Shown: piece after piece, positions 36,887-62,963 of the stretch | How the letters are laid out: each line of letters begins with the position of its first letter | Numbering within the stretch: the stretch's first letter is position 1 | DNA from: Macrostomum lignano | Taxonomy: Eukaryota | Assembly: GCA_002269645.1 (NCBI GenBank) | Contig: NIVC01000716.1 | Coordinates: 269,426-333,425, forward strand | Direction of reading: 5' to 3' | DNA: 64,000 bases | The notes under the pieces: generated by a model | What the model saw: only the letters and a program-made list of their open reading frames with translations | The model's database searches: none | Told to the model about the DNA's origin: nothing | Translations under genes and position numbers: made by a program

Positions 36887-36901
36887 TTTTTTATTTAAAA
36901 A

Positions 36902-38385: not shown

Positions 38386-38389
38386 ACCC

Positions 38390-38791
38390 CTATGAAACAC
38401 AGCCAAGAATAATTTCCTTGTAGGTCTTTCGTGTTTTGGTCATTGCATACAAAACAGTCATGCACAACTCACCGCAAATATCACTGCTAAGACCTTGGAG
38501 AATAAAGTCTGAGTGGTAAATTTTTTTATTATTTTTTCCCTTCATATAATTTCTTAGCTCTTCTGGTACTGCCGTCCCATAGCTATCGAAGTAATAACAC
38601 TTGTGCTTGCGATCGGGATCAATCACCCAGCAAACCCAATGAGATCCTGGCTTATCGGTAGTGTCAAAGTTCATGATGCCGCATTCTTTTCTTAGAGGAA
38701 AATCAGGCAGAGTGTCCCTCATAAATATTCCTCTAAAGTTTGGGATTTCCAGTTCGTTAGCCAAATCTTCAAGAAAGTTATTTGTCGTCAT
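38390..38791 (-). CDS. Adenain-like cysteine protease
   Basis: H (GSHW), D (FDSYG), Q and C (QGLSSDICG) intact. Confidence 0.93.
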   Translation of the reverse strand: MTTNNFLEDLANELEIPNFRGIFMRDTLPDFPLRKECGIMNFDTTDKPGSHWVCWVIDPDRKHKCYYFDSYGTAVPEELRNYMKGKNNKKIYHSDFILQGLSSDICGELCMTVLYAMTKTRKTYKEIILGCVS

Positions 38792-38836
38792 TTTTTATGT
38801 CATTTTTTATGAGGTTTATTAAACTTTCTATTAAAC

Positions 38837-41800
38837 CTAAACGTAACTTCCACCTCCTAAGCCTAATCTCCAATGCCCGAACGGTAGACTGTTGATATTG
38901 TCATCAAAAATGAATCTCTTGTTATCTGCACCTGACAGTCCAATCTTCTTTTGCTGAATTGTGTGAATAATATGGTTTTTAGATTGTAGCTTTGAGAACT
39001 CATGTGATGTCTTTTTGTTGCAATTCAAGGCGTCTCTGTATTCAGCTTCATTAATTTCCTTCCTAACCACACGTTTCGGAATTCCCTTTGATTTTTTAAT
39101 TGGGTCTGACGACTCACATTTTACAAAATAGGACTTTGCTCTCAACCCAATGAATTCAGTGATTATGTCACCAGCAATCTCGTCCTTCATTTTCCCAATC
39201 ACTTTCTTGTTAGTGGCGTCAAACACTTGATCGCCATTCTGTGTCCTGAAAGATTCATCATACTCAGACAAGTCAAACAAATCTTTTTGCTGCAGCATGT
39301 CCTGATAAATGTCTCCTGTTTGAATGTCCATAATAAAACTGTCTGTGTCAGTGTACAAGAGTTTCATTTTATCCTTGTACTGCTGCTTCATGCCATAGAA
39401 GAACTGGTACATCAGACGTTTTGATTCGTCGAGAACAGTGACACCTTTATAGATCGGCTTGCGCAGCGTCACCTTGGTTTTGTAAAATATGATCACACCT
39501 AAGTAGCTATTAAAGATATGGAGTTCTTTGAATGTTGGCTTTGACATATTTGCCTGAATAACAGCAGGCTCTGATGAGGTAACAAGTTTCAGGTTTGTTC
39601 TTTTCCGCTCATTCTCAAGAGTCTTACCATAGACAGAGTTGTTGGCCAACTTAAAGAGGTTCTTGTCAAAGTCGTTGGTTGCTTTGGGCCTAAACTGAAT
39701 GTTCTTATCAATGTAGGGTTTCATCCACGCTTCCTCTGTAAATGTAAGAGCCCTGTGAACTTTGGTGACCCTACAACCAAGTGAGATAAAATACTGAAGC
39801 AGTTTGTAATGGATTTTGTAACGTGTCTTGTTGTGTAGATTCTGTGTTAGTTTCTCTGTATGTTCTTTTTCTGTTCCTGACAGGTGCCAAGTTCCATAGG
39901 GAGTTTCGATTATTTTCGGACACTTGATGTTCTCTGGGAAGGGTGGAAAGTCAGAGAAAAAGTCGTGAAGCTCTGGTGGAATGTAAACATCAACCTCATA
40001 AATGGCAGCCAATGAAAAGTCCCACTTTAGTTCTGATGAGGGTAGCCATCGAAAATCTCTAACTGGAAGATCTTGACTCATCGCCCACCGTAGAGATTAT
40101 TAGCGTCCAAGTAAGTAATGTAGTTTGAGGGCTGCTCCTTATTGTAAGATTCAATGTAGGGATTGTTTGCTTTTGCATACCTGTTAACGCAAATTGAGAT
40201 CCCCCTCGCTTTGACGATTCGACAAAATTGTACATGTCAATGTCTGTAAGAAGTTCAATGTACCAATCTGGATCTTGATCCCATTTCATTTTAAGCAAAG
40301 ATTCCCAGCTAGTGGCAGGCAGAGACACATAATGTGCTGGATCGAGGCCATATGCTGTGTACCAGGTGTATCTGAAGGTTTCAAACACATCAGCCAGCAG
40401 AAACACATCTGTGAAGAGGTAAAGCAGGTGATACTGGAAGAAGTTTTGACAATTAAAGTAATTATAAACATGCTTCGCGTGCTCATAGTCTTTGTCAGAG
40501 ATTCCAGAGTCTGTTAGCTTTGAAAAGAACTTCTCCTGTGGTGGTAAACCTTCTTCAAATACGTGATAACCAGTAATATTCTCATAGGGGTAGAAGCCTT
40601 TCTTTCTTAAAAGTTTAAATGATTCATAAGTGTTGTTAATTTTACTTGCAAACATCTTTGTATATGTACATTGTTCATCTTTTAGATTCTTGCTTAGTTC
40701 GTCTAGACTGGCAGCTAGAAATTGATATGAATCCTTCAGTCTTATTTTACCTTTACCCGAATTATCCTGTTTAATATCAACACACTTAAACTTCTCCTTG
40801 TTCTCTGCGATGCAATCAAGGTGTATGTCTGGAATCATACCGATTTTTTCAACTATTAAATGCATGTCATAGTTCTTTGCGTTGTGACAAAATATCGTTA
40901 GATCATGAATGTTTGATTTTAGCTTTAGATTACAGGTGTTATGCGCAGCGCCTCTAAATTTCCCAGTAAAGTGGCAGTGGTCCCTAACGGTAGGGTTTTT
41001 AAAATCAGTGCAAGTTAACTGTTTCCTGCAGATGTGACAATGAGTTGCTGATAGGAAATTGCTTTCATCCTCCTCAGTCATCATTATTGGAACAGGTTGA
41101 AGAGTGCTAATCACTCTTTGCAACTCTAACGTTCTGGCAATAAACTGCTCCACACACTGCTCTCCAAAGAAATAATTATACTCAACAAGTCCTTTTGTAT
41201 TAATAAAGGCATATGCTACTGAATTGGTGATATGTTTTTGAGTTTGAGTTTGTTTTTGAGTTGGAGTTTGTTTTTGTGTTTCCGGCATGATTGAGCATTC
41301 GAAATCAGCATATACAACAAATGGGAGCTTCTCCATCTTGTGATAGTTCTTAAACCGGAGATACTTCTCTTCAGCTGAAGGAAGAGAGCAGTTTGTCGGG
41401 TGATCCTCGCATGATAATTGATGCTCTGTTAGCTTTTCAAAGCGTTCAGGTCCACTATAATGCTTAAGGCACAAGCGGCAGATGGCAACAGCCTCGTGAT
41501 GATTATTCAACTGCTTGTGAATGAGTCTTGAAAGATCTTTAATCCAAACATAGTGAGCCTCCTCTAGTAAATTACCAATCACTAGAAGATCCACTTCAGT
41601 CCGCCTTTTCCCCTCAGGATCTAAAACGTCTTTGCTACATCTGACCGGTTGAACTTTCTCAGTTTTTTCACTCCACTCAAAGACTGTGATTCTAATTTTG
41701 TTATTAAACACTTCTTCTAGCTTTGGGATCTGAGAGATCGCCAAGCCTCCTTTGTCAAACCTGATTCCCTTCTTTTCGCATTCGATGAGATAGTAGTTGA

Positions 41801-42685
41801 AATAATTTTGATAATTTGAGGTTCTTTCGGGGTGGTGAGGGACACTATCATAAAGAAGTGCAGAAAGAACTGCCCATAGAGCACAGCAATTGTCTTTATT
41901 TTTAACATTTATGCAAGCTTTTTTACCGGCTAGCTTATGCGGGAGCTCTATATAAGGGGAGGCTTTAAGTGGGTCATATTTCATGACCATGACAGTTGCT
42001 CTTTGAATCCCTCCTACGACCCATCCGGAACCTCTGGATGTAAACGCTTCAATTTTCTTAGTGACATCTTGAAGGAAAGGATCCAGTGTGTCTGTTAGGG
42101 TGAATGGCTTCGCCTTTGTTGTCATGTAATACTCGAGATGCTCAGTGGGTTTCGCAGGCATATAAAACGCAATCTTGAATGATATCTGTAGTTTAAAGGT
42201 CTTGCGTGTTTTGAGTGTGTGATCAACAACTGATTGGATGCTGTCTTTATAGTCGTAGATGTTTGCGGTGGTATCCTTAATTGGGATTGTGTACTCTATG
42301 TAATGTTCTGTAAACTTCCTCTGTGCAAAATTAATCTCTTTAGTGGCAAGCTCCGACTCTTTTAAATGGATTAATTGCTCTAATTTCTCTTGTTCCTGCT
42401 TATTTTGTGGGTACTTTGCTTTTTCACCAGTGAGAGTTTCGTATTTGTTAACTAAATTGCGACTCCTCTCTTGGTGTTCTTTTGCAGGATTTTTTATAGG
42501 CGCATACTGGTTGAATTCTAATTGATTGATGATTTCCAACTGTTTTTCATAGCTTCCCAGGTGACCAGGGTCGGTGTTGAACTTTTGTTTGCATGCTTCT
42601 CTTAGTGAATTACTTTTGTCTTGAAATGAGACGCCTTTTGAAAAAGTTTGTTGACTAAATCTTTTGCTGGATTAGCTTTTGGCAT
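38837..42685 (-). pseudogene. Protein-primed DNA polymerase B, frameshifted near 40205, 40088 and at the N-terminus
   Basis: YADFEC, HNAKNYD, KDSYQF, KGFYPY, KLANNSVYGK, YTDTDS, ADNKR. Confidence 0.96.
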
Positions 42686-42809
42686 TTTTTTCTCCAAAAT
42701 AAAAAAAAATTTTGAGGGTGACCACCCTGATAGAAAAGTTGAACTGTTTCTACATCCTATAAGTAGCGCTAGGTTTAAGAAGCTGGATAAAGTGGGGTTT
42801 TAAACCTCA

Positions 42810-43256
42810 TCACATGCGCATTATTGTAAACCCAGCATTGTGCAGTGTCATGATGGCTTTGACAATGTCAGACTTGCTTACAGAATTTTCATGCTCACAA
42901 TCATCACGATCGGGGCAGCCCTCTCCTGCCTTAATTGTTATACCTTTGTCTCTTGCAATCTTTTGCAATTCCAGCTGGTGGGCTCTATCATTCCCAGCTT
43001 TAACAGCAGTTGCTACACCTCCAGCTACACCACCTGCGGCACTTACAGCGCCTGCAATGATCGGAATAAGAGCTGCTAATGGTAGGATTCCTCCTGACTT
43101 TTCATCTGTGATGCTGTGTCTTTGCTCATTACACTGAACTATTTGCTGCACGGGATCGATTTTTACTTTGGCACCTTTAATTGATATAAGACCTGGTTTC
43201 TTTGATTCAATGATTTTATTGAGTTTATTGATGGTTCTGGTTTCAATCTTTGTCAT
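42810..43256 (-). CDS. pX(mu)-like hydrophobic core protein
   Basis: SGGILPLAALIPIIAG segment. Confidence 0.6.
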   Translation of the reverse strand: MTKIETRTINKLNKIIESKKPGLISIKGAKVKIDPVQQIVQCNEQRHSITDEKSGGILPLAALIPIIAGAVSAAGGVAGGVATAVKAGNDRAHQLELQKIARDKGITIKAGEGCPDRDDCEHENSVSKSDIVKAIMTLHNAGFTIMRM

Positions 43257-43272
43257 TTTTTATTTTAATATT

Positions 43273-44280
43273 TTAATTAATTTCTGTGTCAGCCGGTATC
43301 ACTAGGAGTTCAGCTCTAGTGAATGACCGTGTGGGGGATTTAGGGTTAAAGGCCTGAGATAAAAAGTAATATTCTCCAGAGTCGGAGGTGAAATGTCTGT
43401 CTATTTTATGTACATCAAGGCTGAAGTATGGATCTGTAGCTCTTCTTTTGGTGTCTTTCTCTAGCTCTCCAGGTAGATATAAAAAGCGTAGAAACTCAGA
43501 GTTTGTCAGTATGTATGGTGATTCAACTCCTGGAAGCTTAGGGTAGTTTGAGGTGTGTTTTGTGTTGTGTGTTCTATGAGATGACTTAAGTTCGACAGTG
43601 TCTTGTTTAATTGCATGGGATGGTTTCAATCCAGTCATGCGCGTGACTTCATTGTTCAGTTGTTCTATAACAGTGGGGAGGCGGTCTGTCCATTTTAAAT
43701 AGTACTGACCACTTTTTAGTTTCAGCTCTTCAGCTGTCTGCTTAGTGAATAGCCTCTTGGCTAGAGTTAGATTGAATCTTTCCACAAAAGCCTGGTCTCT
43801 GTGCAAGTTTGTTCTGCCATAGCGTATTTCCGTATTATGCTTTTGTAGGAGACTTCTTACTGCCCCATAGAATTCCTTACCCTGATCGGCCATGAACATT
43901 TCTGGATAGGTTAGAGGAGAGGTTTCATAGATCTCTTGCAGTGCGCTGGCAACAACCTCTGACTTCTTCGTCTTGAGTGGGCGAGCTTCCTTATATCTGG
44001 AGGCAACGTCTGTAATTGTGAGAGCATACTTGTAGCCCGAGTCATTGGGGAGAAACAGAAGATCTGCTTGGTGCGCCTCATTAGGTTTATAAATACTGAA
44101 ATGGGGCCTTTCAAATTTTACTGGTGGGAAATAGACTTGGTAGACTGCTTGCTTAGAGAGCCACTTTTCTACTTTAGCTTTTGGTTCCTTACTTAGTTCT
44201 GTGAGTTTACTAACGGAATTTTTGCCTACAAAGAATCCTTTGTCGCTGTAGTAGAGTTTTTTAAGTTTCTGATCTGTCAT
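43273..44280 (-). CDS. Retroviral-type (rve) integrase
   Basis: D-D-E: QADLL, MADQGKEF, VERFN; intact 335-aa ORF. Confidence 0.95.
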   Translation of the reverse strand: MTDQKLKKLYYSDKGFFVGKNSVSKLTELSKEPKAKVEKWLSKQAVYQVYFPPVKFERPHFSIYKPNEAHQADLLFLPNDSGYKYALTITDVASRYKEARPLKTKKSEVVASALQEIYETSPLTYPEMFMADQGKEFYGAVRSLLQKHNTEIRYGRTNLHRDQAFVERFNLTLAKRLFTKQTAEELKLKSGQYYLKWTDRLPTVIEQLNNEVTRMTGLKPSHAIKQDTVELKSSHRTHNTKHTSNYPKLPGVESPYILTNSEFLRFLYLPGELEKDTKRRATDPYFSLDVHKIDRHFTSDSGEYYFLSQAFNPKSPTRSFTRAELLVIPADTEIN

Positions 44281-44310
44281 TTATTTAAAAAGAAAATTTT
44301 AAATAAAATA

Positions 44311-44799
44311 ATGCAGCGCTCTGGTGGTAAAATAGATTCACATGGACTGATAGAAAAGCTTCCTCATCCAAACAAAGGCTGGACACTTCCCGGCTATAAA
44401 TATTTCGGGCCTTTGAATCCACTTGAAATACAGTTAGATAAAAACAATAATCCACATCCTGGGCATGAGCCTGTGAACGAGCTAGACTCTGTCTGCATGT
44501 GGCACGACGTTAAGTATAGAGATTTTCCAGAGGAGAAGAATCGCTGGGACAAAGAAATGCTCAGGAGACTCGACAATATGGGGATTTCAAGCGGGTGGAA
44601 GGAATCGATCGCTCGGAAATTAGTCAAGGCGGTTATTTTTGGTAAGAAAAAGCTGGGGTTGGGGGTCGGCGGTGAGGGCGGGTGCATAGGGAGAGGGGGC
44701 GGGTGCACGGGGTGCTCGGGAACAGGGTTTATTTTGTGTGCTCCAAACGAGGAACTAGGCAGACTGCTGAAAGATATGGGGGTAGAGAGAGACGCTTGA
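44311..44799 (+). CDS. Parvovirus-like PLA2 domain protein (intron-less)
   Basis: PGYKYFGPLN, PVNELD, WHD. Confidence 0.85.
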   Translation: MQRSGGKIDSHGLIEKLPHPNKGWTLPGYKYFGPLNPLEIQLDKNNNPHPGHEPVNELDSVCMWHDVKYRDFPEEKNRWDKEMLRRLDNMGISSGWKESIARKLVKAVIFGKKKLGLGVGGEGGCIGRGGGCTGCSGTGFILCAPNEELGRLLKDMGVERDA

Positions 44800-45003
44800 G
44801 TCGGGAAGGATTAAAAAAAAGACTCATCGATATTAAATTTTAATAAGTGAAGAGCATGGTTAAATATTTTATTTTATGTTAATAAACAAAAAAAACATTA
44901 ATACAAAGTTGTTCAAAGTTACATATAATAATTTCCTTAGTTAATTCATCCAGTTATTATTACATTGAAAACACTACGAGTAGGCTTAGCTTCGAAAAAA
45001 ATT

Positions 45004-49329: not shown

Positions 49330-49896
49330 CTGCATGCATCTACAATCTCTTCCTAACTCGGCATCTTGCATTCGTCTTCGTTACTACGAAAAGTACAACA
49401 TGGCGACGAGGAAAATTAAAGTCGCCGCGGAACGATACTGCAGTCACCAAATCTTCATCCCGATGTCTTCCGGACTCGACTTCCGACTGGGGGAGATGCC
49501 GCTGTGCTACCCCGATGTCGAACAGTATTTCAAGCGCCTCGGTTTTTACATTAGCGCAACGGAAAAGAATGACCAGAGCAAAGCCGTTCTACTTGCTACT
49601 TGTGGAGATGCCGCATTTTCACTGATTGAAACAGTTGTGCAGCAGAAATCGCTCCTTCGGAATTCGGTGTAGTGTTCTTCGAAAGGCGGAATGATATCAA
49701 CACCTTCTCACATTCGGAACCTATGTCATTACTGTTCTGCTTCAGAGTCACTAGGATCCTGCTAGGATCCTGCAAGAGTGGAAGCTCTATCCAACTTGTC
49801 AGAGCCAAAAGACCGGGATCAATTGAGAAGTGCTATATGCACCTTAAGACACTACGGGATTTTTTGTCGGAACTTCTCTATGATCGCCAAGCCGCT
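49330..49896 (+). mobile_element. Degenerate Gypsy element (LTR end, PBS, gag and pol scraps)
   Basis: ...ACAACA followed by PBS-like TGGCGACGAGG at 49401; gag VEQYFKRL...VLLATCG; RT/RNase H scrap FCRNFSMIAKPL, cut at 49896. Confidence 0.65.
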
Positions 49897-50417
49897 AGTA
49901 GTAGTATGTTATAAGGGGTTGCGCCACACTTTATTGCTCGGGCGCATTGCGCGCCAGCTCGCTGGATGACTCAACCCCTTATAACATACTACTACTACCA
50001 GGAGGTCATGGGTTCATGTGGGGTGTGATAAATATAAAAATATATAAATATACATATATCTGTGACTGAGGGTGTTGAGGGTGAGGGCATGTGGGGGCAT
50101 TGGCCTGTGGTATATTTCTCAGAACACCGATTTTTCAGAATTTTTATACTTTTAAAAAGGGGGGTGCCCTCGCCCTCATGCCCTCACTCATTTTGAAAAT
50201 CACTAAAAATAAGTGAAAAATGACTAAAACAGGTGAAAATGGTCTGAAAACAGCGATTTTTGTGATTTTCAAAAATTTTGAAAAAGTGCAATTTTCACGA
50301 TTCCAGCTCTAAAACCATAAGAAAAGTTGGATCCTCGGGTCAATTTAATGCAATTTCAGGTATATACAATATGAAAGTGTCATCTAATTTAACGATAGTA
50401 AATTTTATATATATAAA

Positions 50418-52640
50418 ATGGCCTTCAGTAAACCATTATTTCTAGGAAATGCTTTAGATATTCAGTCAGCTATAACAAAACTACCACCCATCTTCGCCAC
50501 TTGAAAATATCCTGGCGAATTTCATATTCCAGGGTATTCTTTTGCAGGTTACGTAGTGGCCTGAGTGAGGAAGTCAATGTCCTTGCTAGTCATCAAATAA
50601 GCACTTGTTAACTTTTCTAAAGTAAAAATGGAGCAAACAATTCGAAAAATCCTTCTGAAACCAATTGATGATAAGGTTGGGCATGATCAAATTCTTCATG
50701 ATCTTTTTCAAGAAGAGTTAATAATTTCACACAAGATTAAAGTTATTCAAATGAGACTAGGCAGACTATATGAAATTTTGGATTCGAGAAGGTAAAAAAG
50801 ATAGACCTGGTTCACGTTGAGCGAAAGATTGCATTAGAGCTTAAATCTTCTGATAACACGGACAATTCATCAAGTCGTGAAAGGAATTATCAGAAACTAT
50901 TAGACTATAAAAATTCTTATCCCACCTATCAGTTGTATTATGTATGCATCAATAATACTACAAAGGAACCTAAGAATATTTTACTAGACAATGGAATCAC
51001 CCTTATAACAGGAGAATTTGCATTGAAATTTCTTTATGGTGATCAATACAAAAAAATTATAACCAACATTAAACAAGTGCTTAGTGATTGGCGACACCTT
51101 CAAATTGCGGGAACTCCGTCCGATTCTAGTACGTCAATAACAGCCTCAAGTACCACTTCAGTTGAGAAATCTTCTGAAGGAACACAGGTAATTCCTGTTC
51201 CCAATCGGACTTCGTCCGCGAACCTATGGTTCGATGGTAACAAGCTTGAGGACATGGTGGAAATCCGCAGCCAAGCTCCTAAGTCCGAACGAAGTTGACA
51301 AGGATATGGAGAAGGTTCAGAGACTTAATGGGGGTGGGGCTGAAGGATCTGGTCAATCCTGATGAAGCCTTAAGATAAAGTCCAGCCTCTTTCGAAAGAT
51401 TGAGGAACAACTGCCGGGTACAAATTTAGACAAGAGACTCAATCCAATTACAGACCGGCCTCGGTATGACAGTCTACCAATTAACCCAATCGATTGGACT
51501 GCTTACTATCATGACAAAAACTATAGAGATGCTGAAAACACTTCTTCAAATCCAGAGGAAGCTCTAGCAAAGAAGCATATAGCTGATGAAAAAATGATAG
51601 CTGATTTAGATGCTATTCCAACCAGTGACTTGTCTGTGAAAGAGAGACTCATTCGAAATCTAGTAAAGCGTATTATCAAGGCTAAAGTTCGGTTTGGATT
51701 AGGCATTCATACTCACAACCCCAACAATTGTATAGACTGTCTAACAATTTATGGTAAGGGTCTTAGCTATGAAGATGCAGTAAAATTGCATAAAGAATAT
51801 CGAAAGCCAAGAGTATTTAGAAAAATGATTCACTATGCAAAAGACACAATTTGGCATGCAGATATCATTATCCTACCGCCCGAAAGAGGTTACAAATATG
51901 CTCTAACTATCATAGATGGTTTTACACGTTACGCCTGGGCAGTTCCTTTGAAAACAAAGACGGGAGCGGACGTTGCAGAAGCTTTCCAAAAAGTATTTAA
52001 GGAATCAGGAAGACGATCAGAGAGACTTTGTGTAGATGAAGGCAAGGAGTTTTATAATCAGCATATGTACAAGCTATACTCGTTTTCAAAAGACAACATT
52101 AGAAAGAAGGATGAAAGGGGTGAATATATTAACAAGATGTTTTCAATTTATGGCGAGTCCAAGAATGCAATGATTGAGAGGTTCAATCGTACTCTCACAA
52201 ATAAACTCTGGTTTGAATATGATCTACAGGGTAATCAGAAGTGGCTCCACAAATTGCCAGCTATTATTGAAAAATACAACAACACAATCCATTCTGAGAT
52301 TCTGATAACTCCTTCAGAAGCATCTAAACATCCTGAGCGAGTACCAAAGCCAACTTTCGAGTATTCAAATGAGAAACCAAACTTCAAAGTAGGTGACAAA
52401 GTTCATATCTATAGATATAAGGAGCACTTTGAAAAGGGTCGAAGAGGATATTGGAAAATTTCAGAAGTGTTTAGGATAAAGAAAATAGTTTACTCCAATC
52501 CCATAACCTACATTATTGAGGATGAGAATGGAGAAGAAATCATTGGATCATTTTACAAATCCCAGCTTCTACCAGCAAATTTTTCAACTAAAAATGAGCG
52601 CCTATCGAACAAACTGCAAACGGGCGAAAGGTCAGATTGA
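50418..52640 (+). CDS. PLA2-integrase fusion gene interrupted by a group I intron (exons 50418-50549 and 51414-52640; in-frame TGA at 50502)
   Basis: Exon joining gives HIPGYSFAG|PGTNLDKRL...PINPID...YYHD, then in-frame rve core (HADII, VDEGKEF, IERFNRTL). Confidence 0.85.
50550..51413 (+). ncRNA. Group I intron, subgroup IC1-like ribozyme (864 nt)
   Basis: 5' exon ends in U and pairs with IGS GCCUG (50559-63). P AAATTGCGGGAA 51102-13, Q AATCCGCAGC 51262-71, R GTTCAGAGACTTAAT 51315-29, S AAGATAAAGTCC 51372-83. Terminal G at 51413. Confidence 0.93.
50628..51298 (+). pseudogene. Intron-encoded PD-(D/E)XK restriction-endonuclease-like protein (one frameshift at ~50775-50790)
   Basis: QMRLGRLYE...IDLVHVERKIALELKSSDNTDNSSS...YQKL. 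Looped out by an 11-bp stem (50599-609 with 51072-82). Confidence 0.7.
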
Positions 52641-53016
52641 AACGTCTGATTCACAACTACTAGCTGATAAAGAGGGTGAAGGAATTGGTGATATGATCAG
52701 TGGTGTCACAAACTTTTTATCAAATCATGGAAGTAAAATTGTGAGTGGAGCTGATGCAATAGGTAAAACAGCTACCACAGCGAAGAACATATTCGATGCG
52801 AAGAAATCATACAGTGACATGTCTAAAGCAGGTGAGGATCTGGAATATATTAGAAAGAAACGTAGAGATAAAGAAGCAAAGAAAAGAATGGAAGAAGAGC
52901 AACAGATAGCTTCTCAATCAAATAAGGCTATTCAAGATATTGTTAAAAAGGCTCTAGGAACAGCAGAACAGTCTCAAGTGTCTTTGAGACAAGGCAATGG
53001 TTTGAAGAAATTCTGA
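52594..53016 (+). CDS. Small amphipathic virion-type protein
   Basis: GEGIGDMISGVTNFLSNHGSKI; positional and motif homolog of 35507. Confidence 0.6.
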   Translation: MSAYRTNCKRAKGQIETSDSQLLADKEGEGIGDMISGVTNFLSNHGSKIVSGADAIGKTATTAKNIFDAKKSYSDMSKAGEDLEYIRKKRRDKEAKKRMEEEQQIASQSNKAIQDIVKKALGTAEQSQVSLRQGNGLKKF

Positions 53017-53024
53017 CCTTAAAA

Positions 53025-53294
53025 ATGAGCGAGAAAAACACTGAAGCAAGACTCAATCGATATGTTCGAGAGGGAAAACCAAGATATGTTACTGTAAATA
53101 AGCAAAAGAAATATCTTTCTAAAGAGAAGATTCGAAAACTGCAAGAGAAACAGAAAGAACATGAAGGTGGAATAATTCCTCTATTAGGCTTACTACTAGC
53201 AATTTTGGGTGGTATCGGAGCAGCCTCAGGAGTTGGTACAATGATTGCAAAAGTGTTAATACAGCCAACAATGCTAAACATAATAAGACAATAG
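53025..53294 (+). CDS. pX(mu)-like protein, possibly frameshifted near its end
   Basis: Basic N-terminus followed by GGIIPLLGLLLAILGGIGAASG. Confidence 0.55.
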   Translation: MSEKNTEARLNRYVREGKPRYVTVNKQKKYLSKEKIRKLQEKQKEHEGGIIPLLGLLLAILGGIGAASGVGTMIAKVLIQPTMLNIIRQ

Positions 53295-53421
53295 AAGTCG
53301 AACAAGTACCCAGCGAAGCAGTCAAGTGGCTGCTAAAGACGTTTAAAGTTGAAAAGGAGAAACAGGGTAATGGGATAATTCTTAGACCTCATGAAGCTTA
53401 GTTGAAATTTCTCTTATAAAA

Positions 53422-54727
53422 ATGGAGAACAAAAAGAATATACTGAGCATATATGAGGACAAAACTTTTAGCTTTTTCAAAAAGAAAGAAGACTATATTA
53501 AGATTTCTCCAACTCCAGGTAGCACTAATAATCTCAATGTTGCAGGAGGTCAAATAGTTCATGAAGTCAATTCAACAGAGTCATACATTCTCATGTCAGA
53601 GGCATTCGGTTGTATAAAATACTCAATAACACAACGAGATAACACCGACTTGAATACGAACATTACTCTAGAACATAATTGGCCTATGAGACTTTTCTCT
53701 CAACTCATTGTTGACATTGGAGGAACAAAGAAAGTCTATAATGATCCTGGAGAGTATGACACAATCTTAAAGTCCGTAATGTACTCAAAATTAATGAATG
53801 AAGTTGGAGAAGCATACGGATGGATTCCAGACACTGGAGATGCTGGGACTGTTTCTGATATACCTCTAGCAAACAACGCAGATGCTGAAGCTGTGAGAAC
53901 TGCAGCAATCGCTATGAAAAATAGACTCAATAAGAAGGATTCGAATACTGGATACATTAGGAGGCTTGAAAATTATAACAATGTCACTAATGCTCCAAAC
54001 AGAGGTGGAACAATCAAACTATCATTAACACCTCTCATTGGTGTGAAACGATGCTGAAATTTTCTTTGGAGCTGCCGGGACGGAAGCTAAGTTAACTATT
54101 AATAGCTTTGAGATTTGGATCCCTGCTATTACTTTGTCACCCAGTGCTGAAGCAGCTTTTCTAAAATCACTCAACAAGGACATTACAGTATCATTTCCAG
54201 AGAGGGTAACGGTTCCACCACAACTCATTCAAGGAAGTCCATATACATGGAACATAGCCAACATCTCCAATATGCCACTTGCAATCTTTGTAGCTTTCAA
54301 ATATGACGTAAACAACCCATCATATATAGTTAATGATCACAAGTATGTGTCTTACAAAACGGGAGCAAATGCAGTGAAAATAACCCAGCTTCAAGTCAGA
54401 TTAAATCAGGTGATGTATCCGAATGATTATGTTGAAATTGATCCAGTAGCTCAAGACATTCACAGAGCGTATGAAATGTACGAAGACATCTGCAGCCGTT
54501 TCGGTGTAACTCCTCCATTCAATAAACAAGACTTTCTAACCATCTATCCAATCTTTTGCTTTGATCTAACAGCTCAAGATGAGTTTCTGGTCAAGAGTGG
54601 AGTGAATATTCAATTATTTATCAAGAAGTCAACAAATGTTGAGCTGACTGCTTTTGCACTAATTCTTGAACAAACAAAGAATGTAATAAAAGTTACCAGT
54701 GAATATCAAATGACCCGCGTCGAATAA
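53422..54727 (+). pseudogene. Major capsid protein, frameshift/deletion at ~54040
   Basis: KISP..S.NNLN..GQIV, ITLEHNWPMRLFSQ, NDPGEYDTI, YPIFCFDL. Confidence 0.85.
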
Positions 54728-54748
54728 GGTCATTTTTTCTTTTTTTAA

Positions 54749-55522
54749 ATGCCCAAAGTAAAATTTCAGCATGATCCTATTTTCCCTAATCCTCTTTTAT
54801 GTTGTATTATCGGCGCTACAAATACGGGTAAAACATATTTACTATTCCATATTCTTACAAGTCCTGAAAAACTAGTTGACTTTAATGAGTTAGTTTTATA
54901 TGTTCCCAGAGCATCTCAAATGGATCCAGAGTATCAGTTTCTAAAATATGGCTTTGAAAATGGTCTCCCACCTTCTCTTATCAACTCACTCTATCATGTC
55001 TACCAGGTGAGTGAGGATGCATCTCCTGAAGATATTAGACATATTTGTCGAGAGGCAGCCAACCCTGGTCGAGTGCAAAGCACATCAGAAAATTCAGAAG
55101 TAATAGAGAAAATTCCTGTCACTCTTTACCATACTCCAAATGAAGAAATTTTTCATAATGGACTAAAGACATGTGTGATATTGGACGATGTTTTGGGAGA
55201 GGCTAATCAAACATTTCAGGAAAGTCTGTTTCAGAGAGGCAGGCATGGAAACTGTTGTGGTTTTTATCTAGCTCAAAATTTTACCAAACTAGATCGCAAT
55301 ACTGTCAGGGAGAATACGACATGTTACATAATCTTTAAACAAAAAGATACAAACTTGAATCACATTGCTAGAAATATAGAAACGAATTATGAACCCGCTA
55401 TATTCAAGGCTAAATGTAGAGAGGCTTGGAAAAAGAAGTATGGCTATATCTATATAAATACAAGAGCTGATGAGGATGAGCAAGATTTGTATAAGGATGT
55501 TCTAACTAAAATCCCATTGTAA
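54749..55522 (+). CDS. A32/FtsK-like packaging ATPase
   Basis: GATNTGKT, VILDD, RGRHGN. Confidence 0.93.
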   Translation: MPKVKFQHDPIFPNPLLCCIIGATNTGKTYLLFHILTSPEKLVDFNELVLYVPRASQMDPEYQFLKYGFENGLPPSLINSLYHVYQVSEDASPEDIRHICREAANPGRVQSTSENSEVIEKIPVTLYHTPNEEIFHNGLKTCVILDDVLGEANQTFQESLFQRGRHGNCCGFYLAQNFTKLDRNTVRENTTCYIIFKQKDTNLNHIARNIETNYEPAIFKAKCREAWKKKYGYIYINTRADEDEQDLYKDVLTKIPL

Positions 55523-55524
55523 AA

Positions 55525-56255
55525 ATGACTAATGAATATATAAGAGAACTCATTAATTTAGCAAAGCAGCGAGAAACGTACAAATCCAGAAATGATGCTC
55601 AACGCTATTTGAAAATTGGAGAAGAGAGTTTATATGCAAGAGTGGCTCCATTAGCTCAAAAACCTGTCACAGAAAAGCTCGATGAATTTATTGATGTCAA
55701 TGCCAACCTTGTTGATAAACTTCAGAATCAAAAAGTTCCAGTTCCGCAATCAAGTACACCAAAAGGACGATTTGAACCTCTGGAAGTATTTGACAAAATA
55801 ATTGAAGAAATTGGAAAGATTCCAATAACTCAAAGACCAGCGCCTAGTATACGAATTCAAAAAACTGATGCTGGATATATATTTGGATCATCTGTAATAG
55901 ATGTTGAATTCCATGAACAAGGTCGAGACATCATTGTCAACGAATTTCGAATGCCATTTTCTGAAGATCTTGAAGAGTTGTTCAAAATGCCTAAAGTAAC
56001 TGAAAATGGTGAAGAGCTGAAGCAATTCAAGATGCAAACATTGCAGGATTATGTTAACCTCATTGAACATTGTAAAAATCCAGCGGCCAAATCAAGTGGG
56101 ATTATAAGCAAGCAGTAAGGATATTGAAAGATAATCCACCAGGATATCGAGTAAAACCGGGATCTGGACTCAGTGAAAGAGTGTTGACATTACTAGCCGC
56201 AAAAGCAGAGGGACATAACAATGTTGATAAAGAGCTAGCAGAATTACTTGCTTAA
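55525..56255 (+). pseudogene. Homolog of the Gln-rich Polinton protein, frameshift near 56100
   Basis: Shifted tail GSGLSERVLTLLAAKAEGHNNVDKEL matches the C-terminal motif of 21803 and 34345. Confidence 0.6.
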
Positions 56256-56257
56256 AA

Positions 56258-57049
56258 ATGGAAAAAGAAATAGAAAAAGTCAACATCCTCTTGAGTAAAA
56301 AGTTTCAACGCACATTTGACTTCTTTTCAATTAAAAACCCATTTCGACAAACTCTAGGCACTCCTATAAATTTGTATGAAGATCGAGAATACGAAGCTGG
56401 TATAAAAAAGTTTGCAGTCTTTGATGCTATTAACAATATTGAAGGAGGCAATAATGAGTTGCGATACTCGAGGGATAGTGTTAGAACATGGAAAAAGTTA
56501 AAGATTCAAGCAGGGTCATGGGAAGTTAAAAGTCTGTCAAGCGAGATTCAAAGATTGCTAACAGCTGCAAATGATTGGAAAGAGGGGGCTATTGTTTTCA
56601 GTGCAAGCCTAGACACGCGTAGAGTTAAGTTACGGTTAGCCACAGATTATCAAGTTGATTTCAGGGATGCACATTCCAATAACTTTAGAAGACTGTTGGG
56701 ATTCAATTCGGAAGTGTATTTGAAACCATTTGAGAGAGCTCCAAATCCAGCTCGGATAGACGGAGCTAGAAGTGCGATCATGGTTCGTTGTCTAAATATC
56801 AAATGGGGGTTTATCACTGATCCAGCTAATGGAAATCATTTAATTGATAAGCAAATACTTCTTTCAATTCCATCGTTCTCTGTCCCAATGGGAAGTAAAA
56901 TTATTCAAGAGCCCGCAAATCCTGTGTACATACCACTAACTACAAACATGTTGAGCACATTCGACTTTGTCATCGAAGATGAGTCTGGTGTTCTATACGA
57001 CTTTGATGGCGAGGAAATATTTATAAATCTTCACATACGACAAAAATGA
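56258..57049 (+). CDS. Minor capsid (penton) protein
   Basis: LGTPINL, NNIEGGNNELRY, GSWEV, YDFDGEEIFINL. Confidence 0.85.
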   Translation: MEKEIEKVNILLSKKFQRTFDFFSIKNPFRQTLGTPINLYEDREYEAGIKKFAVFDAINNIEGGNNELRYSRDSVRTWKKLKIQAGSWEVKSLSSEIQRLLTAANDWKEGAIVFSASLDTRRVKLRLATDYQVDFRDAHSNNFRRLLGFNSEVYLKPFERAPNPARIDGARSAIMVRCLNIKWGFITDPANGNHLIDKQILLSIPSFSVPMGSKIIQEPANPVYIPLTTNMLSTFDFVIEDESGVLYDFDGEEIFINLHIRQK

Positions 57050-57477
57050 GCGAAGCTGAGACATGGAATGCATTTAAACAAAAGTTTGGGACTGACACTA
57101 CGACTAATATTGATCTGATAAATTGGGCAAAATATCTCAAGTTAAAACCATTTCGCTATGCCATGAGAGATGACATTGTTGACTTACCACAGTATGGTTA
57201 CTTTATGACAAATATTCACACTTCGAAAGAACGGGGTATACATCATTCAGCTATATTTTCAGCTCCTGATAAGGTTTATTTTTTTGATTCCTATGCACTA
57301 CCGCCCACACTGGAAATTATGGAAAAGTTTAATCACACAAAGAATAGAATATGTGGAGACATGGAAGAACAAATTCAAACTTTTGATAAGAAATTTTGTG
57401 GTCAAATGTCGCTGTACTTTTTACACCGAATCGATAAAGGAGATAGCTATAATGAAATTTTGCAGCAATTAAAATGA
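57046..57477 (+). CDS. Adenain-like cysteine protease
   Basis: GIHHSA, YFFDSY, QIQ...KFCG. Confidence 0.9.
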   Translation: MSEAETWNAFKQKFGTDTTTNIDLINWAKYLKLKPFRYAMRDDIVDLPQYGYFMTNIHTSKERGIHHSAIFSAPDKVYFFDSYALPPTLEIMEKFNHTKNRICGDMEEQIQTFDKKFCGQMSLYFLHRIDKGDSYNEILQQLK

Positions 57478-58883
57478 GTTACAAGAATACTGCCAATCAA
57501 TTTGGTTACTCGTCAAATTCAAATGATATAGCACCTGGAATAACAATAGCGTTAGCTGATGATCGATACATCAATGAAAATGAAGGATATAAGAGAGAGG
57601 AAATAGATAATTTATTGTTAGCAAAGAGAAATGTTTCAGACTCTTATTCAAAGGAAGATAGTGACGCAATGAATATCACCATGCTACAATTAATTGACGA
57701 TGCTCATGGGCGCGTAAACAATGTCTACACAAAAACCGAAACTGACACTAAGATGTATTCTAAAACCGAAATTGACACTAAGATGTATTCTAAAACTGAG
57801 ATTGACACTAAGATGTATTCTAAAACTGAGATTGACACTTTGTTAGCAGAAAGGCAAGGTACTGCGGGAGGTACAGAGAGTTCGAAATTAGTCAATATTC
57901 TTTCATTACTGACTTCAAACGCTTCCCATCCTGACATGAAAGTGACCGCTTCTCATAACTCTTCAGCAGCATATCATGTTGCAGATTCAAACCCAGCTTC
58001 AGAATGGAGCAGTGTAGATGACTCAGACAAGTGGATACGAGTTCAATTTCTGAAAAGAGCTAGGAAAGTTGTAGAGATAAAGTTGGAAGGAGAGGTGTGG
58101 CCTGGTTGGTCTGTTAGTGTGAGCCTAAATGGAACAAACTGGACACCTGTTGAACAAAGTGCACCCATTGAACTACGAAGAGGCAATGCACATCTTAGGA
58201 AAAAAATACCTAATCCCTCATATTATTTTCATTATTCTCTTAATTTTTCTGGTTCCGTAAAGCTTACAAAAGTTGAATTACTTGAGAGACAAACAGTGGT
58301 TAATGATTTAGTGTGGCCTATAGATAGACTTCAAGCTGTACCAAAGCTATACGTAGACAATGCACTTGAATCAGTGGAGCTGCGACTAAGGCGGGGACTA
58401 GGTTTCAAATCTTATACAGGATATATTCCCCCACTAGCAACACGTCAAAACTATAGAGAAAGGGGTTTCAATGTAGCGTCATCAGGAGCATTTGAAACGT
58501 CAGATAATTGGGGTTATGTAGTATCTAATTCAGAATGGGCATCGAGGAATGAACCCAATTCTTACATTGAAGTACAACTTCCCGAGTCCATTCGAATTTG
58601 GAAATTCGGGTTAAAAGGAACCAAAGCAGTGGGTAGTGAAATTATAAAAAATCAACCAAAAATTTTTATTCTGAAAGGAAGCAATAACAACAGAGACTTT
58701 AAGAATATTTTTTCTACCGAAAACTCTGGTTTAGTTCCTGGAGTGATGAAGTATTTCGAAGTAGCTTCCACCGAAAAATTCTCTGTTTATAGAGTGCATA
58801 TTAATTCAACCACTGAAGGATCAACTGTTCTTATAGTTTCAGGCTTTCAACTTTATCCGATTTTAGACATAATCGCCACATAA
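57474..58883 (+). CDS. Fibre/spike-like protein with YSKTEID repeats and two discoidin (F5/8-like) domains
   Basis: DDRYIN anchor, 10-aa repeats at 57725-57840, and two ASS...EW.S...WI.V...F.L.GS..G..W-type modules. Confidence 0.65.
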   Translation: MSYKNTANQFGYSSNSNDIAPGITIALADDRYINENEGYKREEIDNLLLAKRNVSDSYSKEDSDAMNITMLQLIDDAHGRVNNVYTKTETDTKMYSKTEIDTKMYSKTEIDTKMYSKTEIDTLLAERQGTAGGTESSKLVNILSLLTSNASHPDMKVTASHNSSAAYHVADSNPASEWSSVDDSDKWIRVQFLKRARKVVEIKLEGEVWPGWSVSVSLNGTNWTPVEQSAPIELRRGNAHLRKKIPNPSYYFHYSLNFSGSVKLTKVELLERQTVVNDLVWPIDRLQAVPKLYVDNALESVELRLRRGLGFKSYTGYIPPLATRQNYRERGFNVASSGAFETSDNWGYVVSNSEWASRNEPNSYIEVQLPESIRIWKFGLKGTKAVGSEIIKNQPKIFILKGSNNNRDFKNIFSTENSGLVPGVMKYFEVASTEKFSVYRVHINSTTEGSTVLIVSGFQLYPILDIIAT

Positions 58884-58884
58884 A

Positions 58885-59655
58885 AATGAATGAAAAAATG
58901 AACACATCTATCCTGTGGTTGAGCTGCATGAAGCAGATTTGAGGGAGCGGGACTATTTCAATCAGAGAAAGGGTGAAATCAAAGGCAGTATTGAATGCAT
59001 TACTAAAGATCTTACAATTTATAGCAAAAAAGTAAACAAGTACAAACGACAAAATAGCAGGATAAATTGGATCAACATTGTGACAGGAAATGTAAGTCTC
59101 TTGGCTGCTACAGGAATTGGCATAGCAACATCGATACTGACATTGAATCCCTTAGTTATTGGAGTAGTAATCGGGGCAATGAGTGGTTTTGAAGCTGTAA
59201 AATCCACGTCGTTGTTTGCAACTGTGAAAATTCATTGCCAAAAGCAGAAGGCAAAATACATTTTTCTCAGAGATCTGGCAAATCAATACAGAGAGAGATT
59301 GAGATTGTATATTTACTCCCAAAAAGCAGTTGATGATTATAGATTAACTCTTGAAGAGGTTCAAGCAGCTGCTGCAATTTATTCAGAATACAGAGAGAAA
59401 AGAGACCAATTGTTAGACGCCTGTGTTGCGCCTGAAGAAGTTAACCATTCGGAAGTCGTTGATAAAATCCTCAAAGAGAGTAGACTTGGTAATTCAGCGA
59501 AGGAAAAAATTAAAAAGGAACTTCTGGAGAAAGATCTGAGAGAAAAATTAGGTCTAGCTGATAAGCCAAAAGAGTACTCGGCAACACTCAATCTTCAATC
59601 AAATGCTCCAAGTGCACCCCCCCTATGCTTGAGTCTGTTTAATTTTTTTTCTTAA
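58885..59655 (+). CDS. Conserved membrane-hairpin protein
   Basis: Basic helix, two hydrophobic helices, AVDDYRLTLEE; homolog of 37673. Confidence 0.65.
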
Positions 59656-59657
59656 AA

Positions 59658-62120
59658 ATGGAAAGGAAAATACCAGCGGCCTCTTATGAATTTGATCTCG
59701 ACTCCGTTGAAGAAATTCGCGGTTTAATCTCCCCAATTCTTTCCGAATATTTGATGGCTAGAGATTCAATAAAATACAGAATTTCCTTTGTCGCAGAATT
59801 TTATAAAGGAACTACCGACAGTTGGATTGAGTTCCAATATCATTCAAAGTATCGAACTTTGTTAAATCTTCTCCAAGTGGAAACTAGTATAGAAAGTACA
59901 ATTCAGGATGTTCTGGATGAATTCGATGGATGGAAGGATAGTTTTAATGAAAGGGGATCAGGATATTATTTTGTTAAGTTAGTAAAGATTGTGTTGAAAG
60001 TTGTTGGCATTAATCAGTTGAAAGGAGGAACTTATATTCCAATTACAATTAAATCAAACGCATTAGTAAATGTTAAGAACACTACAGACAATAGGTGCTT
60101 TCTCTGGTCTATTTTAGCAAAGCTCCATCCTGTGAAGGAACATAGATATAGAGTTGGTAAGTATACACAGTATATAAATGAAATAAACTTAGGAGACGTT
60201 GAATTTCCAGTGGACATTCGAGATATCTCTGAGATTGAAAAGTTGAACAGTCTTCATATAAATGTGTTTGGATTAAGGGATATAAATACTAAAGAGTCAA
60301 TATATTCTATTCGTCTGACAGAAGATTACGACAACCCCAATGTTATTGATTTACTACTTGTCAAAAATTATTATTGTTTAATAACAGACTTGTGTTTATT
60401 CCTCACGTCCCAAAATTACAACAGGGTTTTTCTTTGTCGAAAGTGTCTTCAAGTTAAATACTCCCAGGATGCACTGGATAATCATAAAGCAATCTGTACT
60501 GACTTCAAAGTGTCAATTGAAGTTCCAAAGATTGATAAGAGGATATTAAAGTTTAAAAACTACCACATAAGTGTAAGAAAACCATTTGTGTTTTATGCAA
60601 TATTAGATTATGTAACGATGGATGATAAATCACTAGAGCTATCACAATGGACACTTTTTACTAGTTCCGACTATGAGGACATTATAAAATCAGATATTAT
60701 TTCAAATACTACAGTGGAATCATTCGTTGAAACCGTAATCAAAAAGTTTGAGCATATAAAAAATGAAATGGATAGATATAAACATCCAAGTTTAAGTGAT
60801 CTCGATGAGACTGATTACAAAGCGGCAGAACAATGTTTTCTCTGCTCAAGGCCATTTGTAAATAGTAAAAAAATTCGAGAGCATAATCACTACAATGGTA
60901 AATATCGCGGCGCAGCATGTCAATCATGTAATACCAAGGATGGCAAGGCGAATCAAACGGTACCGTTGTTTCTCCTGAATGAATCTGGAAAAGATATAAA
61001 CTATTTGATAGTTCCATTAACACGAATAAAGAATACAGCGTATAAATTGGATTTCATTTCTAAAACATCGGAAGACCATGTTGCAATTAAGTGAGGGAAT
61101 TATACCAGTGGTGTTGTGTTTTTAGATGGATCTAGGTTTTTGGAACCACCATTTACACTCTCTGAAGAAGAAATAAAATATTTGCCACCCAGTGATACAA
61201 CGGCAGTAATTAGAAAGATTTACTCATTTGTCAACGCTTTTGAGAAGTTTCGATCAACATTTTTGAAATATTTCAAGATAGATCCTGCGTATTGCTTTTC
61301 CCTTTCTGGATTATCGTGGGCATGTGGGTTGAAATATACCAATGTTGAGCTGGAATTACTTGGTGATAAAGATATGATATCCGTGGTAGAAAGTGGTATT
61401 CGCGGCGGTTTCTCTGGAGTTCTTGGAGATCGATATAAAAAAATGAACAATAAGTATTTAGAAAATTATGACAGCAATTCTGAATCGTCGTACATGTTAT
61501 AATTGGACAAGAATAATTTATATGGTGAAGCAATGATGAAAAATCTACCTGTGCGAGATTTCAAGTTTGAAAATGATCTAGAGTATCACAAGAATATTCC
61601 TAATGACAGGGGTTGTTTTCTTGAAGTTGACCTTCAATATACAGAGGAATGTAAGAAAGCTACAAGTAAATATCCACTGGCTCCTGAGAAACGAACAACT
61701 AGATTTGAGGATTTATCTGACATACAGAAGCAATACCTCGAAGTCGAAAAGAAAAAGTTTGTTCAATCCAAGTTGATGTTGACATTTTACAACAGTGATG
61801 CAATATCTCAGTGTTTATTCTCAGTGATTATAATTCTCAGTGATTACTCAGGATGTTTATGAGGATCTTGAAAAAATTAAAGAACACTTAGACACATCGG
61901 ATTATCCAAGAGAGCATCCACTATACTCCGAGACGAACAAGAAAGTCATTGGAAAGTTGAAAGATGAAATGAATGGCTCAATAATTTCCGAAGCTGTATT
62001 CCTGCGGTCAAAGGAGTATGCTTTCACTACAGTTTCAGGGGAGTGTGTTACGATCAAGGGGGTTGATAAAAGCAGTACAAATATAAAGTTTGAAACATTT
62101 AAAAACATACTATTGACAGA
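59658..62120 (+). pseudogene. pPolB of Polinton-3, fragmented and 3'-truncated
   Basis: ERGSGY, CFLWSIL, EHNHYNGKYRGAACQSCN, GIRGGFS, NNLYGEAM, VIGKLKDE, LRSKEY. Confidence 0.92.
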
Positions 62121-62963
62121 TTACAATTTCATTGTTAGTAAACCTCTCTTTGAACAAAGTAGTTACCTGTTTGAGTTTGTTGGCTCTTTGTATTGAATTT
62201 ATATTCTTCATTGTACTCTGTAGTTTCTTTTCAAGTGCTTTTAACTTCTCTTTATCATCAGCCGCCTTCTTAATTGCAATTTCGAGTCTAGTCTTTCGGT
62301 GGTTTAACTCACTGCTAACAAGATTTGATATTTTAAGAAATATGTCATTTATACTACTTAGTTCTCTCCACTTATCATCATCAAAATAGTAAATACCATC
62401 GCTATTGTAAATTATATTATTCTTCTTATATTCATAAACAAAGTTGGTTATGTTAACGTCAGTGAAATTATCATCAAGATACTCAATCCTACCATAGTAA
62501 TCATATTTGCTTTTCCATTCCTTATATTTGTTATAGTTTTCTTTACTTGCCCATTTCTTTAGTGTACCGATAGTAAGTCTGTCCTGTGCATCAGCAGAGC
62601 TGGCACTGGTGCTATTCCACTCCTTTTTACATGATTCGGAATCGAACTTATCATCATAATTTACTTTTGACCAATCAGTGAATACTTTGTACATTTCATC
62701 ACCACTGCCTATGTCGCGGAGTATAAGTGCTACCTTGTACCAAGAATCATAGTCTTGGTTTTTGTGTTGTATTATACTTAACAACTTTGAAACTCCTTCA
62801 CAAGTGGGTGGTGGAACGGTGCTTTTTAGTGCCTGTTTATCGGGTTCTTGGTTTTCTTTTTTATCCTGTGGCTCAATTAATCTATTTATCTCTTCAAGAA
62901 CTACAACTGGCATGTCTATTAACCTTTCGGGCTTTATACGTTTGTATTCCCTAATTTCACCAT
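62120..62963 (-). pseudogene. D5-like primase/helicase fragment (PriCT-2-type domain), truncated at both ends
   Basis: DYDSWYKVALIL...FTDWSK...KFD..SCKKEWNS...LTIGTLKKWA matches the PriCT-2 pattern. Confidence 0.75.

Follow-up and report, generated by a model that had tools for sequence, protein, structure and literature searches.

A group I intron encoding an Eco47II-family nuclease in a Polinton gene of Macrostomum lignano, and its possible role in restriction and homing without a methylase

How does a ribozyme come to interrupt a protein-coding gene in what looks like animal nuclear DNA, and what might such an intron offer the mobile element that carries it? These questions are raised by a 64,000-nucleotide (nt) stretch of the Macrostomum lignano assembly GCA_002269645.1 (contig NIVC01000716.1, positions 269,426 to 333,425 of the forward strand; hereafter the window, numbered from its first letter), in which the PLA2-integrase gene of a Polinton is split by an insert at 50550-51413. 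An earlier note, made from the letters of this stretch alone, had read the insert as a self-splicing group I intron; the intron is upheld here, but the reading was incomplete, as about 460 nt of the insert form a nuclease gene that had been overlooked, together with the bearing of the short site GGNCC and a second intron family. That the insert is a group I intron is close to certain. That intron, nuclease and carrier make up a methylase-free restriction and homing system, in which the carrier has purged the target site from its own sequence and the one copy that it cannot do without is interrupted by the intron, is in our judgment likely. The features at issue are the following:

50418 to 50549, plus strand: exon 1 of the PLA2-like/integrase gene, 44 codons, the last of them a Gly codon
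50545 to 50592, plus strand: P1 (with the U-G pair at the 5' splice site), P2 and the 5' strand of P2.1, from motifs and folding
50550 to 51413, plus strand: group I intron, IC1-like, 864 nt, splitting a Gly-Pro codon pair, from Rfam, empty alleles and pair counts
50628 to 51298, plus strand: Eco47II-family PD-(D/E)xK nuclease gene in the P2.1 loop, running on into the ribozyme core (PF09553, E 3.1e-6)
51085 to 51413, plus strand: ribozyme core, with the 3' strand of P2.1, P3, P4, P5, P5abc, P6, P6a, P7, P8, P9, P9.0 and the terminal G
51414 to 52640, plus strand: exon 2, with the remaining PLA2-like domain (PF08398, E 0.0012, below the cut-off) and a retroviral-type integrase (PF00665, E 3.4e-10)

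The Rfam search proposed in the earlier note returned RF00028 at 51025-51404 (91 bits, E 5.4e-22, gathering score 50), the single Rfam match in the 64 kb, and all 28 genome copies scored likewise exceed the cut-off. The motifs that had been read by eye were all found in their places, namely the P1 strands CAGGU (50545) and GCCUG (50559), the strands of P2.1 (50585 and 51085), P3 (51095 and 51330), P4 (51106 and 51264), P6a (51276 and 51308) and P7 (51322-26 and 51378-82), the A-rich bulge (51236), the U that precedes the insert and the terminal G at 51413 after CU; folding agrees with the description given of P1, P2, P5abc, P8 and P9. Sister copies with and without the intron, which the note had suggested looking for, exist: among 30 examined, 20 carry the insert and 10 are empty, and because these natural empty alleles join exon 1 to exon 2 with 0 nt of insert, they fix the predicted boundaries exactly. 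The intron measures 864 nt in the window and mostly 879-894 nt in its sisters. Its removal does restore the PLA2 motif, as had been claimed, but not a whole protein, since exon 1 of the window copy holds a premature stop at 50502-50504; this copy is a pseudogene.

Pairing was compared in 17 chosen introns from the two families and one metagenome contig (L271, L272 and near-duplicates being left out). In this set of mutually related introns, with pairs counted without a shuffle control, P4, P6a and P7 have standard pairs at every position in 17/17, and the guanosine-binding pair of P7 is G-C throughout (17/17). Three of the five P7 pairs have changed on both sides in the 17-row alignment, and double changes also occur in P3, P5a, P5b, P5c and P8. 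Introns of subgroup IC1 are recognized by P2, P2.1, a P5abc with an A-rich bulge, a GAAA loop and a receptor in P6a/b; motifs, folding and pair counts place all of these here, with the GAAA loop and the bulge in P5abc and a receptor-like CCUAAG/UAUGG motif in P6a. The intron thus appears to fit IC1, and the note's label of IC1-like is retained; P9.1 and P9.2, common in the IC1 introns of ribosomal DNA, are absent from the window intron. Short GC-rich hairpin inserts, which resemble a small mobile palindrome, vary among copies in the intron loops (P5, P5c, P6b) and near the start of exon 1 (window 51200-51235 and 51121-51140; L023, L258, L268, L270, L255, L257, L259, L265, L269). At L034:487-920 a truncated, intron-bearing gene start lies directly 5' of an empty allele, possibly as a scar of rearrangement or repair.

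What does the remainder of the insert encode? In the window, whose intron is 16 nt shorter than in most sisters, the nuclease gene is broken into two frames (50628-50792 and 50774-51298); a single open frame of 211-228 residues is present in 13 of the 20 intron-bearing copies examined. The product of one natural open copy (P0006) matches PF09553 (RE_Eco47II) with 31 bits against a cut-off of 25.9, and searches of NCBIfam, PHROGs and PDB sequences gave no match. Residues D65, E76 and K78 of a PD-(D/E)xK-type motif are conserved in at least 90% of 19 homologues. In an AlphaFold model with a predicted local distance difference test score (pLDDT) of 92, residues 1-160 align along EcoO109I, the top match in both fold searches (Z score 9.8, root-mean-square deviation 3.6, 159 residues aligned, the next match at 7.2; E 2.4e-4), and this 160-residue domain lacks an additional DNA-binding domain. 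A relative (P0035) is a fusion of a C5 methylase with the Eco47II domain, which assigns the nuclease family to restriction-modification stock. In a comparison of diverged copies the nonsynonymous divergence (dN) is 0.05 and the synonymous divergence (dS) 0.24, and the nuclease is, by this measure, under purifying selection. Homologues of Eco47II are assigned GGNCC (PMC10305163), and EcoO109I cuts RG^GNCCY (PMC3089450). Taking family, fold match and the site depletion described next together, GGNCC is highly probable as the specificity of the intron-borne enzyme.

Any Gly-Pro codon pair contains the word GGNCC, and the insertion point is accordingly such a site; the junction reads GGC/CC in 10/10 empty alleles examined. 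Avoidance of this word by the carrier was expected from the family name and the junction before the counting was done, which gave:

50400 to 62900, no strand: body of the element, free of GGNCC (0 seen against 10.9 expected)

The two other Polintons of the window have 20 sites against 23.5 expected and 16 against 18.2. In 5/5 element sets GGNCC is absent (7.4 to 10.9 expected per set), and it ranks first for depletion among all 256 XXNYY patterns in every one, the five sets representing two related lineages and not five independent tests. Within the window element both GGWCC and GGSCC are at 0, but GGCC is at a normal 9/9.5. The Gly-Pro dipeptide is likewise missing from the 3166 residues of 12 open reading frames (ORFs) (5.1 expected), a zero reached by 0/1000 codon-order shuffles and 14/1000 synonymous shuffles. 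One empty copy has 0 GGNCC in the 9 kb downstream (7.8 expected), and one group of copies has a site upstream, in a stretch that is not homologous to the window. As a separate observation, CCNGG and CANGG/CCNTG are also scarce in the second family (e.g., 4/16.9), a hint of a second avoided site.

This second family makes up many of the 117 matches to the intron-core pattern in the genome, where numerous loci form near-identical sets and assembled counts may exceed true copy numbers. Its exon 2 is about 58-60% identical to that of the first family, and its intron, of about 300 nt and ORF-less, occupies the same Gly-Pro site. The last base of the intron is G in 6/6 family-1 rows of the alignment and A in 8/10 family-2 rows; A-terminated introns in coral mitochondria provide a precedent. 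In 8 of 14 family-2 loci the nuclease stands free just upstream of the gene, with 65% identity to the intron-borne enzyme, and the three family-2 sets counted, with either of two ORFs in this slot, are GGNCC-free. Exon 1 has a ratio of nonsynonymous to synonymous polymorphism (pN/pS) of 0.32 in nine intron-bearing copies, and its frame stops no more than five codons into the intron in 5/5 copies read; purifying selection on exon 1 despite a stop just inside the intron argues that splicing works in vivo. Trees place the free-standing nuclease beside family 1, within its intron-borne relatives (the root is not fixed), and a grouping of the 12 intron-borne rows without the free gene is rejected in a post hoc approximately unbiased test (p-AU 0.012). 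On the strength of these trees and this test, family 2 as a stage preceding the entry of the nuclease into the intron was dropped, and exit of the gene from the intron appears at least as likely as entry.

Other observations on family 2 may be set down here. The second occupant of the slot, a viral ORF with an H-x-D-H-x-I-P motif (L263:172-630, also L255, L258, L265, L266 and L269), has no Pfam or PHROGs match in its six loci and offers a weak HNH lead only (atlas 0.89, 52% of members). The family-2 elements (L273 with L255, L274 with L256, and L276) hold capsid-like, ATPase, protease-like, fibre-like and integrase genes; a polymerase B ORF was not found in the roughly 11-12 kb seen, and these elements may rely on another element for replication. 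Three empty family-2 alleles were located (G000 C1051:285565, C3031:79194 and C3967:31632), two of which still have the junction ending in U that is seen where the intron is present, the outcome expected of precise intron loss.

Relatives beyond this genome suggest where both components may have come from. The metagenome contig L042 holds the same intron and nuclease at the same site of a PLA2-integrase gene, with 0 GGNCC in 1297 nt, and the protein sequences of 11 database homologues of the nuclease read on into group I core motifs. More distant relatives, at about 30% identity, occur in metagenome and viral contigs, some in giant-virus bins; blastn found the intron core in none of their 89 loci. 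A scan of viral contigs with the P6 motif gave 121 loci, none matching this nuclease or host gene; the viral-contig genes in which related intron motifs occur look capsid- and RNA-polymerase-like. One distant locus emerged from a scan of prokaryote genomes. A giant-virus source for both intron and nuclease is, from these sequences, plausible. Strong GGNCC loss was also seen in four contigs that hold distant free-standing relatives, L098, L107, L088 and L131 (3/29.6, 1/21.8, 2/12.7 and 36/129.6, respectively), with no C5-methylase motif in the DNA retrieved for them.

How might these parts work together? The PLA2-integrase mRNA would be made by group I self-splicing, as the structure of the intron suggests, and the intron would encode a nuclease derived from a restriction enzyme and cutting the short site GGNCC. 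The carrier would be protected in two ways: GGNCC has been purged from its whole sequence, Gly-Pro dipeptides included, and the intron splits the site in the PLA2 loop, which cannot be mutated away because any Gly-Pro codon pair reads GGNCC. In an intron-less sister the enzyme would find essentially a single site, the insertion point, and mending of that break with an intron-bearing copy as template would be homing. Unrelated DNA sharing the compartment (further Polintons, a helper virus, or host DNA at a late stage of infection) would suffer many cuts, which would amount to interference competition. The short, ORF-less intron of family 2 would confer immunity to the same enzyme, often encoded just upstream there. 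In keeping with homing, the nuclease is encoded in or beside an intron that splits its predicted target, and empty alleles exist. The 12 genome-wide C5-methylase matches include none on the contigs listed for the elements (N4 and N6 families were not searched genome-wide), and the 44 ORFs scanned contain no C5 methylase, the elements not having been viewed end to end. Copies that share 99.0% identity across exon 2 drop to 93.4% across the intron and 88.5% across exon 1; such mosaics fit intron transfer but also ordinary recombination. In its fuller form, the proposal is that restriction operates without modification, that the enzyme drives homing in an animal nucleus and destroys rival DNA, and that ORF-less introns, including A-terminated ones, spread as immunity; we hold this to have slightly better than even chances.

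Besides the origin of the five purged sets in two lineages, a number of observations weigh against this proposal. Similarity to Eco47II is weak, the homologues of L262 and L042 fall under the PF09553 cut-off (18.8 and 20.9 bits), and restriction folds shift specificity easily. Free-standing relatives at about 30% identity mostly lack any special loss of GGNCC (pooled, 0.74 of expected in 90 loci, like other palindromes), and a C5-methylase motif lies near only 3/54 of them. The slot upstream of the gene holds the other viral ORF in 6/14 family-2 loci, and both such loci counted are GGNCC-purged, so the purge is not one-to-one with the nuclease gene. Twenty empty family-1 copies persist, and one of the empty copies (C620) has four further GGNCC sites. 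Host-like DNA is rich in GGNCC (28/34.1 in 9 kb), and the enzyme must therefore be silent in integrated copies or confined to a lytic or compartmented phase. Splicing and cutting, finally, are both predictions from sequence and structure. Four of 24 listed runs were examined for junction reads, and none of the listed runs containing the stretch is recorded as RNA. In one run, guessed to be RNA, a contig joins the end of exon 1 to exon 2 with two mismatches at a depth of 3.3; it is not decisive, because two empty family-2 DNA alleles also read GGT/CC at the same junction. Another run shows an empty DNA allele. Neither the variant exon start nor an exact match to the family-1 junction occurs in the assembly.

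Should the enzyme instead be regarded as an ordinary homing endonuclease that recognizes a long site at the insertion point? The purge would then be owed to a GGNCC system of a helper giant virus or to an ancestral specificity since lengthened. Known PD-(D/E)xK homing enzymes do read long sites, 17 bp in the case of I-Ssp6803I (PMC3424549), a long target would spare the host, and copies without the nuclease gene are purged as well; nevertheless, the domain that aligns along EcoO109I has no further DNA-binding domain with which to read such a target, synonymous positions of the exon around the site vary freely, both inside a family and between the two, and some second cause would be required for the agreement among family specificity, fold match, junction word and purge. 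What is seen favours a target of 5 bp over the 14-40 bp of a classical homing endonuclease, and we regard a long target as unlikely. A different division of labour, in which GGNCC is cut mainly to destroy host or helper-virus DNA in the lytic phase, the intron being self-protection only and homing rare or incidental, overlaps with our proposal. It draws on the chlorovirus restriction enzymes, whose role is thought to be degradation of host chromatin and which did not account for the exclusion of viruses (PMC7019647), on the free-standing gene in 8/14 family-2 loci and on the many empty family-1 copies that persist. Family 1, L042 and apparently the 11 database homologues nevertheless have the nuclease gene inside the intron, as is typical of homing elements; the breakpoints of mosaic copies lie close to the intron, and the slot is shared with a viral ORF that is weakly HNH-like, as would be expected of selfish nucleases. 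Destruction as the main function, with homing incidental, therefore seems rather improbable.

Our proposal further requires that the ribozyme be active. Were the intron a relic, the spliceosome could join the GT at 50548 to the AG at 51428-29 with the loss of six PLA2-loop codons, or the integrase could be made from a downstream start; the GT-AG pair exists and keeps the frame, most family-2 introns end in A and not G (8/10), and the window copy is a pseudogene. In the various lineages, compensatory changes nonetheless maintain P3, P4, P5abc, P7 and P8; purifying selection acts on exon 1, the GT-AG joint was not seen in the four runs examined, and the AG is missing at that position in L256. 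A relic is thus very unlikely, and a self-splicing intron is the reading retained below.

Does the intron reside in animal nuclear DNA, as the earlier note had supposed? The assembly searched (764 Mb, 5269 contigs) contains 86 Wnt exon matches and 18 matches to troponin, a bilaterian marker. A Wnt exon and an intron-bearing copy lie about 128 kb apart on contig C67, a Wnt exon lies 24 kb from a family-2 intron on C952, and C506 also holds both a Wnt exon and a family-2 copy. Homology with eight copies (L002-L008 and L028) begins at 49894-49897 of the window, and the flank differs in each. The stretch also occurs in 20 runs, contributed by 8 studies, that all bear the same organism label. These findings bear out the location given in the note, and the reading of the insert as an IC1-like group I intron within a protein-coding Polinton gene of animal nuclear DNA is supported. 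The nearest public relatives of core and nuclease come from viral and metagenome contigs, and the window's own contig shows no host gene beyond transposon-like ORFs, but with Wnt exons sharing contigs with both families, 117 core matches, a distinct flank at each left end and a single organism label across the 20 runs, contamination of the assembly by contigs from a protist, a fungus or a giant virus can be given almost no credence.

The carrier itself is recognizable as a Polinton, in line with the earlier note, from the PLA2-like domain fused to an rve integrase and the capsid, A32 ATPase and polymerase regions downstream:

49897 to 50399, plus strand: left end with an AGTAG terminal motif and an internal inverted repeat at 49897-49997, from the homology limits of sister copies
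53422 to 54727, plus strand: major capsid protein gene in two pieces (PF21738, double jelly-roll-like, E 2.8e-4, below the cut-off, second piece)
54749 to 55522, plus strand: A32-like packaging ATPase (PF04665, E 7.7e-6)
56258 to 58883, plus strand: three ORFs, with a Pfam match (F5/8 type C) in the last only
59658 to 62196, plus strand: protein-primed polymerase B region in pieces, from an Endonuclease_7 domain and a tblastx link

The Polinton/Maverick gene set of integrase, A32 ATPase, jelly-roll capsid (below cut-off) and polymerase B is accordingly present, with several genes broken in the window copy. The polymerase region is tied by tblastx, via copy L039, to those of the window's other Polintons, and the three ORFs at 56258-58883 we take, from their position, to be minor capsid, protease and fibre-like genes. 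Polintons are also marked by terminal inverted repeats at both ends and a 6-bp target duplication; of these marks the left end of the element was found, whereas its right terminal end was not found within the window.

The two Polintons of another family, at 9100-25400 and 32000-45000, are oppositely oriented and up to 99% alike in parts; they carry a separate, intron-free PLA2 gene in which the Gly-Pro loop is kept, with normal GGNCC counts. A copia-type retrotransposon breaks into one of them near 19660-21790. At the right edge of the intron-bearing element, a PriCT-2 (primase C-terminal) ORF (62110-62913, minus strand) stands beside a repeat found also at 8400 and 31460. The inter-Polinton DNA contains, at 29289-30405 and 26072-27280 (both minus strand), a DUF3504/tyrosine-recombinase-like ORF and two ORFs that resemble pieces of a methyltransferase-fold gene, the piece scanned having no Pfam match.

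Several known systems resemble this one in part. Group I introns were reported in 2025 in protist Polinton-like viruses of Rhodomonas, Paulinella and Desmodesmus (PMC12220804); these are RF00028 introns in protein genes of integrated elements, as here, but they measure 309-376 nt and interrupt a short gene that precedes the one for the capsid, with no nuclease named in the accessible part of that report, whereas the present intron has a bilaterian host, splits a PLA2-integrase gene and encodes a nuclease. The novelty claimed in the earlier note was to this extent slightly overstated. Neither a group I intron in animal nuclear DNA nor an Eco47II-family intron nuclease was found in the literature covered, which lacks most subscription journals; where a paper on nematode Polintons, in its accessible part, brings up group I introns, it is only as something from which an HNH domain might have come (PMC10748475). 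Restriction-like folds within group I introns are known from I-Ssp6803I (PD-(D/E)xK) and I-Bth0305I (EDxHD), which are bacterial or phage enzymes of other Pfam families with long targets (PMC3424549; PMC3943268), whereas the present enzyme belongs to PF09553 and apparently reads a 5-bp site. Eco47II-type and chlorovirus restriction systems share the nuclease family and a short palindrome, the chloroviruses also acting in a eukaryotic cell (PMC10305163; PMC7019647). They have a companion methylase, which chlorovirus restriction genes are described as always adjoining (PMC7019647); none was found here, and protection apparently comes from site loss and the intron.

Likewise, the free nuclease directly upstream of an ORF-less intron splitting its target, as in family 2, recalls collaborative homing (PMC11296320), except that the tree puts the free gene among intron-borne ones and the order may be exit and not entry. 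An intron nuclease as a weapon has been shown in phage (PMC11620839): PhiPA3 gp210, an intron endonuclease proposed to harm a co-infecting virus, is an HNH enzyme directed at one specific sequence, whereas the present one is a predicted short-site cutter in an animal element. Chloroviruses and giant viruses, too, have group I introns with related P6-P7 motifs in protein genes of eukaryotic DNA viruses (PMC7019647), but these are not integrated in animal chromosomes. The present system would combine the behaviour of a homing intron with that of a restriction system; it scores above the cut-offs for a group I intron and for PF09553, and we claim classical membership of neither system for it.

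If the proposal is correct, group I ribozymes would splice protein-coding messages in animal cells at more than 100 assembled loci, and restriction enzymes would be a new source of intron nucleases, able to become homing enzymes without acquiring a longer site. It would also provide a rationale for the usefulness of such an intron to its carrier, and the pairing of site loss with an intron in the one unmutable site may be a new, and testable, principle of self-protection. Because empty alleles, nuclease-bearing introns and ORF-less introns accompanied by a free nuclease all coexist in a single genome, a long-discussed passage from one of these states to another could be tested directly in it. 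Lastly, the A-terminated introns offer natural variants for the study of 3' splice-site choice.

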